Origin: Escherichia coli
GTDB taxonomy: Bacteria > Pseudomonadota > Gammaproteobacteria > Enterobacterales > Enterobacteriaceae
Reading direction: 5' to 3' (one strand)
Assembly: GCF_030013205.1 (NCBI RefSeq)
Contig: NZ_CP122648.1
Length of the DNA stretch: 64,000 bases
Position numbers and translations under genes: made by a program. Numbering within the stretch: the stretch's first letter is position 1; each line of letters opens with the position of its first letter. A model generated the notes under the pieces. It was given only the letters and a program-made list of their open reading frames with translations, searched no databases and was not told the origin of the DNA. Of the stretch, positions 50,513 through 54,425 are shown piece by piece.

Positions 50513-52123
50513 TTACATTTGATTAAACGAAAGACGCTGACGAGCACGGGATGCAGGCTTTACGACCGCCTGAGCCATCGCCTCACCAATTTCTGCACAT
50601 GCCGTAAGTCCCTGTACGAATGGCTGGTCGTGCATCAACCAGGGCAACGCGCCGAACGCTACGCGCCCACGAATTTCTTCGGGTTGCTGTAGCGTATAAT
50701 CTTCGCCAACATCAGGGATTTCATCCCCTGTTTTCTGTAATTGTTCGCGTAGTCCAGGGAAAGGAATATCTTTCACTTTAAGCGGACGCTGCCCGCGGGC
50801 ATCAATAAAAACGTCAAACGAGTAGCTGTTGTCTTCCGTTTTCAGGACGGTGCGCGACTCATTAATTTCCATTTCGTAGTCTTCACCGAGGGCGAGAATA
50901 TGAATGATTCCCGCTTCACGTAAGGCCAGCAGCCGACGAATAGACTCTGAAGGGATTGCCGCATAATTATCGATGAAAACCCGGGCAAGGCTTTTACTGA
51001 ACCGTTTATGGTCGAGTTCATTCAGATGAGGAACAATTTCCTGTACGGCTTCATGCAGGCGCAGAATGACATAACGCCAGGGAACAGTATGTTTTTCTCG
51101 TTTATTGCGTTCGACTTCCTGGAGATTTTTTTCTGCCCAGTCGAACGGGTCGCGTTGTTTGCGCTCGGCAAACCAGGCTTGAGCAAAGGAATCGACATTC
51201 AGGCTTTCTAAGGCTATGCGTTGGCTCCAGTCTGGATCAGCAAATTTGATTTCCTCTACTATCAATCTAAATACCCGATCCAAAAGGCCCTCTTCGCCTT
51301 TTTGAATCTCAGCATTTAATGCTTGATCAGTGACGATGTGTAAGGGCTCGTAGGGAATAGGGCAATAGAAATCGGCTTCGGGTAGAATACCTGTGCGCGA
51401 CATTAACGTAATATTTAGCTTTTCACTTGCGTTATCGCGGTGAAAAATGACGTGTTGTTTATCATCTTCAATGAACGAACCATGCTGAATAGCCACTGCC
51501 ATTGCCGCATCTAGTCCGCTCAAGGATGTTCCCATAATACCCACGTTACACGCATCGACCTTTGCTTCCATCAGGCCTGACCACGGGCTGGGAAAATACG
51601 TTCTGGTTGCTTCTTCTTCATCAGGCCAGACGTGACCCGTCGCGATCACTGCTAAATCAAACGTCTCGCTGGGTAAATCCTGATTTGTAGCGAGCATGAC
51701 GCCAGCATTTATAATTTGCAGATCGGTAACCTGGCATGATTCATAAACAGCCACTGCAAATTTTTGCTGTCGTGCCTGGTCTACTAATCGTAAAAATTGA
51801 TCGCGGAAATATTCGCCCAGCAGAATTCGCGGTAAAAACTGACGATCGTGCAAGGTTTCTTTTTTAACGCCATAACGCTGGAGATGGCTGGCTTCTTGCT
51901 TTTGTAGCCATTCGAGATACGTACAATAAATCGGCGGTATTTCAATACTGGCAATATTTGCCAGCATCATTTTTGAGTTTTCCTCATCACTGTATGGCAT
52001 CCCGACACCGGCTTCATCAGCCTGCTCGAAGATAGAAATAGAAAGTGGAGTTTGTTGCTGTAGAAGCGAGAATAAGGTGTAGATCCCCGTAGGCCCGGCA
52101 CCCACAATAGCAATTTTTTTCAT
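50513..52123 (-). CDS. ydhS: FAD/NAD(P)-binding protein of unknown function
   Basis: 536-aa ORF with N-terminal GAGPTG dinucleotide-binding motif. Confidence 0.9.
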   Translation of the reverse strand: MKKIAIVGAGPTGIYTLFSLLQQQTPLSISIFEQADEAGVGMPYSDEENSKMMLANIASIEIPPIYCTYLEWLQKQEASHLQRYGVKKETLHDRQFLPRILLGEYFRDQFLRLVDQARQQKFAVAVYESCQVTDLQIINAGVMLATNQDLPSETFDLAVIATGHVWPDEEEATRTYFPSPWSGLMEAKVDACNVGIMGTSLSGLDAAMAVAIQHGSFIEDDKQHVIFHRDNASEKLNITLMSRTGILPEADFYCPIPYEPLHIVTDQALNAEIQKGEEGLLDRVFRLIVEEIKFADPDWSQRIALESLNVDSFAQAWFAERKQRDPFDWAEKNLQEVERNKREKHTVPWRYVILRLHEAVQEIVPHLNELDHKRFSKSLARVFIDNYAAIPSESIRRLLALREAGIIHILALGEDYEMEINESRTVLKTEDNSYSFDVFIDARGQRPLKVKDIPFPGLREQLQKTGDEIPDVGEDYTLQQPEEIRGRVAFGALPWLMHDQPFVQGLTACAEIGEAMAQAVVKPASRARQRLSFNQM

Positions 52124-52248: not shown

Positions 52249-52554
52249 TCAGGCGAGTTTTGCCTGACTGATTTGACTAAGTGGCTCATTGACATCGAAA
52301 ACTTTGGCGACAACTTCCTCAACGCCGAGATTTTTCAGTCGGGCAGTATGTTTTTCCAGATAGGCAAGGGCGTTTTTTTCATCAGTAAAAAGGTAGATCC
52401 CACCGGCTTCGTGGTTCTTTTCACTTTCTGTCCATACCTTCCACAGAAAACCAGGTTCCTGATTAATCGACTCAGCAAGCGGTTTAAGCTGCTCAGCCAT
52501 TGCGTCGCCAAATGGGCCATTGAAAGAAAAATGAAGTTGTAACAAAGTTGCCAT
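52249..52554 (-). CDS. ydhR: Putative monooxygenase YdhR
   Basis: 101-aa ORF matching K-12 YdhR. Confidence 0.88.
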
Positions 52555-52662
52555 AGCGATTCTCCTTCTGATAACGCATACGAAGACAGTGTAAATCTTT
52601 TAACGTATTGGATACAGAGAAGAAACAGAGGGAAAAAAGGAGAAGACCAGATTAAGAAAATC

Positions 52663-52739
52663 TGGTGCGTCCGAGTGGACTCGAACCACCGACCCCCACC
52701 ATGTCAAGGTGGTGCTCTAACCAACTGAGCTACGGACGC
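52663..52739 (-). tRNA. valW: tRNA-Val (anticodon GAC)
   Basis: Reverse complement reads GCGTCCGTAGCTCAGTTGGTTAGAGCACCACCTTGACATGGTGGGGGTCGGTGGTTCGAGTCCACTCGGACGCACCA; valV/valW label by synteny. Confidence 0.93.
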
Positions 52740-52743
52740 AGGA

Positions 52744-52820
52744 TGGTGCGTTCAATTGGACTCGAACCAACGACCCCCACCATGTCAAGGTGGTGCTCTA
52801 ACCAACTGAGCTATGAACGC
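52744..52820 (-). tRNA. valV: tRNA-Val (anticodon GAC)
   Basis: Reverse complement reads GCGTTCATAGCTCAGTTGGTTAGAGCACCACCTTGACATGGTGGGGGTCGTTGGTTCGAGTCCAATTGAACGCACCA; 4-nt spacer to neighbour. Confidence 0.93.
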
Positions 52821-53128
52821 AACGTTGTAGGTGACAACGGGGACGAATATTAGCGGCAGAGTGGGAAGGTGGCAAGAGGCAAAACGTAATTTTCTGCGCT
52901 ATTTCGACCGTTTGCAGAGCTTTTAAGCAAATTGGCTATATTTTGTTGATTTGCAAGGGCGATTTTTATTCAGGATCGCATTTACATCTGACACAACCCA
53001 ATAATCTGTGTATCAGAGTTTAAACAGAGTTGTTTGCCACCATCTCAAAATCTGTCGTGGATAAATCCTCCGTAGCCTTTACACTTAGGTAGCAATAAAG
53101 GCACACAGATGCAGCAAAGGAATAAATC

Positions 53129-54385
53129 ATGGGATCTGATGCGAAAAACTTGATGAGCGACGGGAACGTGCAAATTGTTAAGACCGGCGAGGTCATTGGC
53201 GCGACGCAACTTACTGAAGGTGAGTTAATTGTTGAAGCTGGCGCAAGAGCCGAAAATACCGTGGTCACGGGGGCTGGCTGGTTGAAAGTGGCAACCGGTG
53301 GGATCGCCAAATGTACACAGTACGGCAACAATGGCACGCTATCGGTCAGTGACGGTGCCATTGCCACAGATATTGTTCAGTCAGAGGGAGGCGCAATTAG
53401 TCTCTCTACGCTCGCTACGGTTAATGGCCGCCATCCCGAAGGTGAATTTAGCGTTGATCAGGGTTATGCCTGCGGTTTGTTGCTGGAAAATGGCGGTAAC
53501 CTGCGTGTACTGGAAGGCCATCGCGCGGAAAAAATCATTCTCGATCAAGAGGGCGGCCTGTTGGTCAATGGGACAACCTCAGCGGTCGTGGTAGATGAAG
53601 GTGGTGAATTGTTGGTGTATCCAGGTGGGGAAGCCAGCAATTGTGAGATTAATCAGGGCGGCGTTTTTATGCTGGCCGGGAAAGCCAGTGATACGTTGCT
53701 TGCTGGTGGTACCATGAATAATCTCGGTGGTGAAGACTCTGACACTATTGTTGAGAATGGAGCCATTTATCGTCTGGGGACGGATGGCCTTCAGCTCTAT
53801 AGTTCCGGTAAGACGCAAAACCTGTCCGTTAATGTGGGTGGTCGGGCTGAAGTGCATGCCGGTACGCTGGAAAACGCGGTAATACAAGGTGGGACAGTGA
53901 TCTTGTTGTCACCCACCAGCGCGGACGAAAATTTTGTCGTAGAGGAAGATCGCGCACCGGTTGAACTGACCGGGAGTGTTGCATTACTGGACGGCGCTTC
54001 AATGATTATTGGCTATGGCGCAGATCTGCAACAATCAACGATTACTGTACAGCAGGGCGGTGTGTTGATTCTCGACGGCAGTACGGTAAAAGGTGACAGT
54101 GTCACTTTCAGTGTTGGTAACATCAATCTGAATGGCGGAAAACTGTGGCTGATCACTGATGCGGCAACGCAGGTGCATCTGAAAGTGAAACGCCTGCGTG
54201 GAGAGGGAGCGATTTGCCTGCAAACCAGTGCGAAAGAAATTTCACCTGACTTCATCAATGTGAAAGGGGAAGTTACTGGTGATATACACGTTGAGATAAC
54301 AGATGCCAGTCGGCAAACTCTGTGTAACGCACTGAAACTACAGCCAGACGAAGACGGGATTGGCGCAACGCTCCAGCCTGCGTAA
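53129..54385 (+). CDS. ydhQ: Autotransporter passenger-like beta-helical repeat protein (no signal peptide or barrel evident)
   Basis: 418-aa ORF rich in Gly-containing beta-helix-type repeats. Confidence 0.9.
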   Translation: MGSDAKNLMSDGNVQIVKTGEVIGATQLTEGELIVEAGARAENTVVTGAGWLKVATGGIAKCTQYGNNGTLSVSDGAIATDIVQSEGGAISLSTLATVNGRHPEGEFSVDQGYACGLLLENGGNLRVLEGHRAEKIILDQEGGLLVNGTTSAVVVDEGGELLVYPGGEASNCEINQGGVFMLAGKASDTLLAGGTMNNLGGEDSDTIVENGAIYRLGTDGLQLYSSGKTQNLSVNVGGRAEVHAGTLENAVIQGGTVILLSPTSADENFVVEEDRAPVELTGSVALLDGASMIIGYGADLQQSTITVQQGGVLILDGSTVKGDSVTFSVGNINLNGGKLWLITDAATQVHLKVKRLRGEGAICLQTSAKEISPDFINVKGEVTGDIHVEITDASRQTLCNALKLQPDEDGIGATLQPA

Positions 54386-54425
54386 AAACACAGGCGCAAC
54401 CCGTGAAGGTTGCGCCTTGTCTTTA

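Follow-up and report, generated by a model that had tools for sequence, protein, structure and literature searches.

Gene organization at the ydhQ locus

The DNA analysed here is a stretch of 64,000 nucleotides from Escherichia coli (contig NZ_CP122648.1 of assembly GCF_030013205.1), called the window below, and the gene in question is ydhQ, which lies between a tandem pair of tRNA-Val genes and mdtK. A first reading made from the letters of the window (the sequence-only reading) had described the product, YdhQ, as a protein of 418 residues with repeats like those of autotransporter passengers, and had left it unclear how, or whether, it is exported. Following the analyses presented here, we conclude that YdhQ most likely works inside the cell. 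The locus contains the following features.

53129 to 54385, plus strand: ydhQ coding sequence, 418 codons and a stop codon (open reading frame list, NF007409 equivalog match, RefSeq annotation)
53117 to 53121, plus strand: Shine-Dalgarno sequence AAGGA of ydhQ, 7 nt before the ATG (from the sequence)
52663 to 52739 and 52744 to 52820 (span 52663 to 52820), minus strand: tRNA-Val(GAC) gene pair valV and valW (ARAGORN, Rfam tRNA matches)
54392 to 54417, both strands: bidirectional intrinsic-terminator hairpin common to the convergent genes ydhQ and mdtK (terminator scan, sequence)

An ATG opens the 418-residue reading frame, and the N-terminus of the product is MGSDAKNLMSDG. No in-frame start codon was found 5' of this ATG in the list of open reading frames, in which each frame is given from the first start after a stop, and therefore YdhQ has no in-frame N-terminal extension. 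An upstream start that would reveal a hidden signal peptide was rejected on this basis and because the Shine-Dalgarno sequence is in place. On the other side of the gene, the terminator hairpin (10-11 pairs, 7 of them G-C) begins 6 nt past the stop codon and therefore leaves no room for a lost barrel-coding part. The tandem tRNA-Val(GAC) genes are divergent from ydhQ and lie 308 bp from its start, so that the adjacency described in the sequence-only reading is correct. With 62 Gly among 418 residues (15%), a pI of 4.38 and a net charge of about -28, YdhQ is best explained as an acidic, soluble protein of about 43 kDa. A stretch of 1.9 kb that includes the gene is 100% identical to porcine enterotoxigenic E. 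coli (ETEC) and O139 strains, whose annotation presents two tRNA-Val genes, 'ydhQ: AIDA repeat-containing protein', and then mdtK.

Domain content of YdhQ and search for export determinants

Two regions of the protein were recognized by domain models.

53165 to 53908 (about residues 13 to 260), plus strand: AIDA / strand-loop-strand repeats, predicted right-handed beta-helix (Pfam AIDA in four stretches, TIGR04415, AlphaFold2, Foldseek, phmmer)
54113 to 54337 (residues 329 to 403), plus strand: truncated Pertactin/autochaperone-type domain (Pfam PF03212)

The earlier description of Gly-rich, passenger-like beta-helical repeats was borne out by these searches. Pfam AIDA (PF16168) matched four stretches of YdhQ (E 4e-29) and the TIGR04415 repeat was found at 42.6 bits against a cutoff of 30, while the match to Pertactin (PF03212) covered profile positions 1-78 of 121, the protein ending 15 residues after it. 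Over its full length (1-418 of 418) YdhQ belongs to the NCBIfam equivalog NF007409 (PRK09945), with 938.3 bits against a cutoff of 830. The equivalog models for Antigen 43 (Ag43; 85.7 versus 1200 bits) and AIDA-I (54.5 versus 1200) remained far below cutoff, and the match to the NCBIfam heptosylation-target repeat was far under cutoff or partial. An AlphaFold2 model built from ten Escherichia orthologues is all-beta, with a mean predicted local distance difference test score (pLDDT) of 83.6 and a predicted template modelling score of 0.77, and the only residues of low confidence are 1-10, 220-223, and 263-274. When the model was compared with the PDB using Foldseek, the top matches were Ag43 (7koh, 7ko9, 7kob, and 4kh3; E 1e-10 to 1e-12) and glycosylated TibA (4q1q), with UpaB, IgA1 protease, and pertactin lower in the list.

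Homologues were searched exhaustively with HMMER over 1.84 billion cluster representatives. A single representative (P0002, 99% identical) covered YdhQ at near full length; the other matches with at least 50% identity were short fragments of 51-175 residues, and most of the remaining ones were proteins of 1000-6000 residues at about 30% identity. The best longer relative, P0026, is an autotransporter of 1534 residues, 38% identical in the repeats, which has an ESPR, eleven AIDA repeats and a whole autochaperone/Pertactin domain. Ag43 residues 202-317 were paired by phmmer with YdhQ residues 27-142. A further relative, P0082, carries AIDA, a complete Pertactin domain and then an Autotransporter beta-domain, and from its N-terminal sequence we tentatively take it to be the E. 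coli YcgV-type autotransporter. In BLASTP, residues 72-486 of P0082 are colinear with YdhQ 2-392 (29% identity, E 8e-28) and the alignment stops in the middle of the Pertactin domain, at an 'FVTD/EITD' motif. The homology of YdhQ is therefore to an inner slice of an autotransporter passenger, and both the part that precedes this slice (signal peptide) and the parts that follow it (autochaperone end, linker, and barrel) are missing from YdhQ.

The doubts about export in the sequence-only reading, namely no obvious signal peptide and too short a protein to include a translocator barrel, both held on closer inspection. No Sec signal peptide was seen in YdhQ, whose N-terminus is hydrophilic and acidic and has no hydrophobic stretch; the best 10-residue Kyte-Doolittle window within the first 60 residues reaches 1.19, versus 2.36 in the signal region of P0026, and SignalP 6 is also reported to predict no signal peptide (PMC13101318). 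Pfam found no ESPR in YdhQ, in contrast to P0026, and no Autotransporter beta-domain (PF03797) even at E<=1. A partner translocator, which the earlier reading had proposed to look for, was not found in the 64-kb window by tblastn with barrel queries, and remnants of a barrel, an ESPR or a Pertactin end were likewise absent below E = 0.6 in any frame. Of the traits that define a type Va autotransporter, YdhQ therefore presents the beta-helical passenger and lacks the signal peptide and the 12-stranded barrel with its linker helix.

These findings bear on the possibility that YdhQ is an exported adhesin which leaves the cell by a Sec-independent or trans route and aids early adhesion or biofilm formation, whether by a partner translocator elsewhere, by flagellar type III export via a disordered N-terminal tail, or in outer-membrane vesicles. 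Homology to self-associating adhesin passengers and an N-terminal tail of 12 residues that is predicted to be disordered yet nearly invariant would suit such a protein, but with neither a signal peptide of any class nor a barrel, and with no partner or remnant of one in the window, we consider export unlikely.

Conservation and selection

The ydhQ coding sequence is present, ungapped and in single copy, in 5424 of 5426 complete E. coli genomes, and 59 of 60 records sampled across the ranking showed full coverage and normal annotation. The YdhQ of the window is 97% identical to the main E. coli/Shigella cluster and represents a minority allele, a ydhQ at least 99% identical to it occurring in only about 20 of 5425 genomes, with all others at 95-99%. 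The 100% matches listed for this allele are nearly all pig isolates, several of them ETEC or O139:H1. Orthologues of 418 residues were found in E. ruysiae (90%), Escherichia sp. E4742 (87%), E. whittamii and E1V33 (87%), and, more distantly, in E. marmotae (83%) and E. albertii (80%). A 419-residue orthologue with 71% identity (locus L004, Logan SRR31578456, positions 320-1579) has the same tRNA-Val promoter region upstream of ydhQ and was not recovered among GTDB species representatives; with it, the YdhQ family reaches beyond the named Escherichia species. Gene order (ydhR, two tRNA-Val, ydhQ, mdtK, ribE, cfa) is kept in E. albertii and E. marmotae, and both termini of the protein, MGSDAKNL... 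and ...KLQPDEDGIGATLQPA, are kept in the orthologues. In all nine orthologous coding sequences examined, the terminal stop codon is the only one.

The ratio of non-synonymous to synonymous substitution (dN/dS, Nei-Gojobori) of ydhQ was 0.09-0.13, or about 0.10, at dS values of 0.77-1.7. This is similar to ydhR (0.07-0.10), whereas mdtK and ribE have lower values (0.01-0.03). Within ydhQ the ratio was 0.035-0.08 for the N-terminal half and 0.17-0.28 for the C-terminal third. A published site-model scan found some positively selected sites in ydhQ (PMC9110714), and this is compatible with the higher ratio in the C-terminal third. Low dN/dS, together with intact coding sequences, fixed termini and wide presence, indicates that YdhQ is under purifying selection as it stands. 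YdhQ is not a decaying pseudogene, and selection maintains the 418-residue form.

The sequence-only reading had named proof of a pseudogene remnant of a larger autotransporter as a finding that would overturn it. The corresponding explanation is that ydhQ is a non-functional remnant, with both ends lost, which persists through short time or by hitch-hiking. Such an origin would account for an alignment with an internal passenger segment that ends inside the Pertactin domain, and for the use of a deletion mutant as a neutral control (PMC6962156), but it is contradicted by a dN/dS of about 0.10 with synonymous sites near saturation, by the maintenance of length and termini from E. coli to E. albertii and the 71% relative without any internal stop, and by the near universal presence of the gene. 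Also, ydhQ has its own Shine-Dalgarno sequence, leader and terminator, and the protein is made: it has been quantified by label-free mass spectrometry, with a 5.5-fold drop with vanillin (PMC6561319). We therefore hold a non-functional remnant to be highly improbable. As for the other finding that had been named, a cytoplasmic enzymatic role, none has been demonstrated.

Two regions stand out in the alignment of orthologues.

53408 to 53533 (residues 94 to 135), plus strand: most conserved block, TLATVNGRHPEGEFSVDQGYACGLLLENGGNLRVLEGHRAEK (alignment of orthologues; local dN/dS 0.035-0.08)
53909 to 53968 (residues 261 to 280), plus strand: conserved acidic loop, SPTSADENFVVEEDRAPVEL (invariant alignment columns, low pLDDT)

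Residues 94-135 are nearly invariant, with many invariant charged and polar residues, and residues 101-120 have no amino-acid variant among eight orthologues. Perhaps this block forms a binding surface. The acidic loop is invariant even though residues 263-274 are predicted to be disordered (pLDDT below 50), and it is longer than in P0082, where BLASTP places a 7-residue gap (extra residues 266-273 in YdhQ).

Two other lines were followed. Cys makes up 1.2% of YdhQ, and the median for 96 long relatives is 0.49%; as a signature of a cytoplasmic protein this is weak evidence, given the heterogeneity of these relatives, nine of which are above 1%. A defence-system or phage origin was rejected, since PADLOC gave no defence-system match for ydhQ and the PHROG matches were limited to two families of unknown function.

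Origin of ydhQ and the tRNA-Val neighbourhood

Outgroup loci were fetched by way of MdtK orthologues from Salmonella, Enterobacter, and Pseudenterobacter. The gap between mdtK and the two tRNA-Val genes measures about 150 bp in Salmonella and Enterobacter and about 410 bp in Pseudenterobacter, and neither ydhQ nor any other gene was found in it at these loci. When the spacers were aligned across genera, homology was limited to the 110-120 bp or so adjoining the tRNA, that is, the valVW promoter region. The outgroup gaps and the short shared spacer therefore define the ydhQ leader, coding sequence and terminator as an Escherichia-specific insertion.

52941 to 54425 (left boundary approximate), plus strand: Escherichia-specific insertion of about 1.5 kb containing the ydhQ leader, coding sequence and terminator (outgroup loci, spacer alignment)

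The inserted parts are a leader of about 190 bp, the coding sequence, and an mdtK terminator that differs from those of the outgroups. Relative to the tRNA operon, the insertion is on the promoter side, flanked by the valVW promoter on the one hand and by the mdtK terminator and stop codon on the other. A foreign base composition was ruled out by the G+C content of ydhQ (0.49-0.535), which is the same as that of its neighbour mdtK. Decay in situ of a full-length autotransporter was rejected given the outgroups with no gene at this place, and no evidence of a full-length ancestor at the site was found in the 64-kb window or in the outgroup loci; the truncations of YdhQ are older than the Escherichia radiation. 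A pattern scan over the GTDB (about 100,000 species) returned ydhQ only from Escherichia, at five loci, the two peptide patterns used being narrow and very specific, so that absence elsewhere is a limited test.

Next to mdtK, the two tRNA-Val(GAC) genes mark a variable chromosomal spot, a hot spot for acquired DNA. Beyond the pair lie ssa genes of Salmonella pathogenicity island 2 (SsaU/T/S/R/Q/P/O/N-type Pfam families) in Salmonella (L012, 7514-13362), type VI secretion genes in Enterobacter (L013, 7528-13374), and ydhR-ydhS and ydhV-ydhT oxidoreductase genes in Escherichia, ydhQ being on the opposite, promoter side. The adjacency of ydhQ to tRNA-Val reflects this variable spot rather than a demonstrable functional link.

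In the spacer between ydhQ and valV, some 60 bp (52908-52968, CGTTTGCAGAGCTTTTAAGCAAATTGGCTATATTTTGTTGATTTGCAAGGGCGATTTTT) are nearly invariant across Escherichia, including the 71% orthologue; Salmonella and Enterobacter have no equivalent of the distal half of this block, which starts at about 52941. The block could serve ydhQ as a regulatory site, or the tRNA promoter as an upstream activating region.

Other observations were made in this neighbourhood. The Rfam family RF02194 ('HPnc0260 bacterial antisense RNA') has a full-length match at 52538-52701 on the plus strand (112 bits; gathering score, 59), in antisense orientation to the 5' end of ydhR and the second tRNA-Val; this may simply reflect seed sequences that contain tRNA. 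The gene ydhS (50513-52123, minus strand) is an intact open reading frame of 536 residues in the window, while NZ_CP062203, a record 100% identical over the ydhQ stretch, annotates it as 'frameshifted' (1610 bp); this corresponds to a 1-bp strain difference or to an assembly error in that record.

Expression and leader signals

A motif scan of the region upstream of ydhQ gave a candidate promoter for sigma-32.

53018 to 53045, plus strand: candidate sigma-32 promoter GTTTAAA-N13-CACCATCT, ending 83 bp before the ydhQ ATG (motif scan)

The consensus used for the scan, CTTGAAA / CCCCATNT, is reportedly that of Nonaka and co-workers (2006). The candidate scores 11 of 14 against it and is plausible but imperfect; transcription would be predicted to start near 53052. 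The same position was the best or joint-best in five of seven orthologous leaders and within the top four in the other E. coli-like leader (L007), and the 71% relative had no candidate at the matching position.

Published data connect ydhQ with sigma-32. A chromatin immunoprecipitation (ChIP) signal of 1.4 has been assigned to ydhQ, which is among the 34 sigma-32 targets re-detected by improved ChIP-chip out of 38 with ChIP and other support (PMC2996942, Table 2). In microarray work, the lists that contain ydhQ also contain the sigma-32 genes yciS, ycjF, ycjX, yhdN, ybeD, and ybeZ (PMC2868799).

At the level of translation, ydhQ is both a predicted and an observed target of CsrA (PMC5389547), and the candidate sites for CsrA are two GGA motifs, one in the Shine-Dalgarno sequence and one at codon 2. 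The AAGGA of the Shine-Dalgarno sequence is invariant in six Escherichia leaders, the start of the gene (ATGGGATCTGA) is nearly invariant at the nucleotide level, and the first 12 codons have reduced synonymous variation among orthologues. This suppression of synonymous change suggests that the translation-initiation region is constrained, as would fit the GGA motifs and the CsrA listing. It also weakens the argument for export drawn from the conserved N-terminal tail, as it indicates constraint at the RNA level and not a peptide signal. Another point raised for export, an FlhDC site located by genomic systematic evolution of ligands by exponential enrichment in the ydhQ-valV spacer at about 52871-52912 (PMC9962212), overlaps the valVW promoter and lies outside the ydhQ leader.

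A structured leader RNA was ruled out, given that the ydhQ leader folds no better than shuffled sequence (z = +1.6) and contains no Rfam match. These results also apply to the proposal that the selected function resides in the DNA or RNA, the locus either spacing the mdtK terminator apart from the strong valVW promoter, or insulating the two, or yielding a regulatory transcript. The exact placement of the insertion between terminator and tRNA promoter and the near invariance of the 60-bp spacer block would be expected of such a function, but selection acts on the amino acids, synonymous change being about ten times the non-synonymous rate, and a gap of about 150 bp from mdtK to valV suffices in Salmonella and Enterobacter. 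A function in DNA or RNA is thus barely credible.

Localization, partners and phenotype

The question of export, left undecided by the sequence-only reading, has received a partial answer in published work. A YdhQ-pFAST fusion without an added signal peptide was fluorescent, folded, and cytoplasmic by microscopy, and a leaderless YdhQ-agarase fusion gave no external agarase activity (PMC13101318). The authors of that study call YdhQ a 'leaderless autotransporter', a term that we find unjustified because the barrel is missing.

Possible partners come from two studies. By orthogonal organic phase separation (OOPS), YdhQ was among 17 uncharacterised proteins recovered in the RNA interactome, and in supplement file 7 it is in class Q3, that of 'stoichiometric' RNA-binding proteins (PMC11066096). 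YdhQ was also found to co-purify with EF-Tu (PMC2672614). The leaderless fusion, the sigma-32 data, and the OOPS and EF-Tu associations fit a cytoplasmic life of YdhQ, and, being cytoplasmic in character, these associations and the reported regulation by sigma-32 and CsrA speak against export.

Several published observations pull in the other direction and weaken the case for a cytoplasmic function; some of them also count in favour of an exported adhesin. Surface display of YdhQ was reported in 2026, only when an exogenous signal peptide was added (PMC13101318), a claim that we regard as mechanistically unexplained, and the cytoplasmic result of that study was obtained with an over-expressed reporter fusion. 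Among the COG3468 proteins of vesicle proteomes there is one named YDHQ (PMC10458587), and a second-hand statement in PMC9110714, citing Roux et al. 2005, has ydhQ as needed for early adhesion. EF-Tu is a common co-purification contaminant, proteins recovered by OOPS are candidates only, and with a pI of 4.4 YdhQ is unlikely to be a direct RNA binder. The exact position of the sigma-32 promoter comes from the motif scan only and so stays putative. Finally, the ydhQ deletion has served as a neutral control with no known phenotype (PMC6962156), and the locus is also used as an integration site.

A probable cytoplasmic function for YdhQ

Taking all of this together, we think that YdhQ is probably a passenger slice which is now used as a cytoplasmic, stress-regulated, non-enzymatic beta-helix binding scaffold. 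Its source would be a passenger of the AIDA-I/Ag43/YcgV type, of which it would retain an internal part extending from the repeats across the first two-thirds of the autochaperone domain. An Escherichia ancestor would have acquired or created this part in the form of the insertion described above (about 1.5 kb, with the mdtK terminator on one side and the valVW promoter on the other), already without signal peptide and barrel, and purifying selection would have kept the 418 residues since then. We propose that YdhQ stays in the cytoplasm because it has no entry to the Sec/type V pathway. Binding of sigma-32 RNA polymerase upstream of the gene would tune its expression to stress, with the GGA motifs at the ribosome-binding site as the probable place of CsrA action.

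As a non-enzymatic scaffold whose level is tied to stress, YdhQ could bind its targets through the polar hairpin block (residues 94-135), the acidic loop (residues 261-280) or the conserved N-terminal tail, and may contact components of the translation/RNA or proteostasis machinery. Under laboratory conditions it is dispensable. A more specific form of this proposal, that the exapted adhesin slice is a sigma-32/CsrA-controlled acidic beta-helix acting on the translation/RNA machinery under stress, for example as a nucleic-acid mimic or an EF-Tu- or ribonucleoprotein-binding factor, is quite doubtful. Such a role would account for the OOPS recovery and for the co-purification with EF-Tu.

YdhQ is a remaining uncharacterised product of the E. 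coli core genome that is routinely labelled an 'adhesin/autotransporter' but lacks two of the three hallmarks of that class. Purifying selection, confinement to Escherichia and reported co-regulation with cytoplasmic stress genes move the search for its function from the surface to the cytoplasm, and caution is advised when YdhQ is used as an 'autotransporter' scaffold or counted as a biofilm adhesin. If true, the exaptation would be a neat example of how a passenger domain from a secretion system can find a new use within the cell.

Comparison with known systems

The pentapeptide-repeat proteins MfpA and Qnr are acidic, repeat-built beta-helices which are cytoplasmic and act by binding rather than by catalysis. 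The likeness of YdhQ to them is an analogy; the repeat family and the helix geometry are unrelated, and no match by sequence or fold came up beyond one pentapeptide-repeat chain in Foldseek, at E 0.07. Nucleic-acid mimicry by YdhQ is hypothetical.

With the type Va proteins Antigen 43 (Flu), AIDA-I, and TibA, YdhQ shares the PF16168 and TIGR04415 repeats and the predicted right-handed beta-helix, and it has the conserved hairpin unit 'NG..G.F.V..G.A.G..LE.GG.L.VLEGH.A'. Unlike them, it lacks a signal peptide, an ESPR, an alpha-helical linker, and the 12-stranded barrel; its autochaperone domain is reduced to 78 of 121 positions, its identity to them is about 30% at best, and the published fusion is cytoplasmic. 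Only with the putatively YcgV-type autotransporter P0082 could YdhQ be aligned one to one and colinearly over nearly its full length. The two differ in that P0082 goes on to the remainder of Pertactin and the PF03797 barrel whereas YdhQ stops after its 'ITDAS' motif, and in the extra acidic loop (residues 266-273) of YdhQ.

From the family described as NF007409 and in RefSeq as 'AIDA repeat-containing protein YdhQ' there is no substantive difference, the window carrying a minority allele of it. The gene, its family model, the repeat content and the missing signal peptide were already on record in databases and in the 2026 paper. The present analysis adds a test for selection and a reconstruction of the insertion, and it connects the architecture with the cytoplasmic stress-regulon data.

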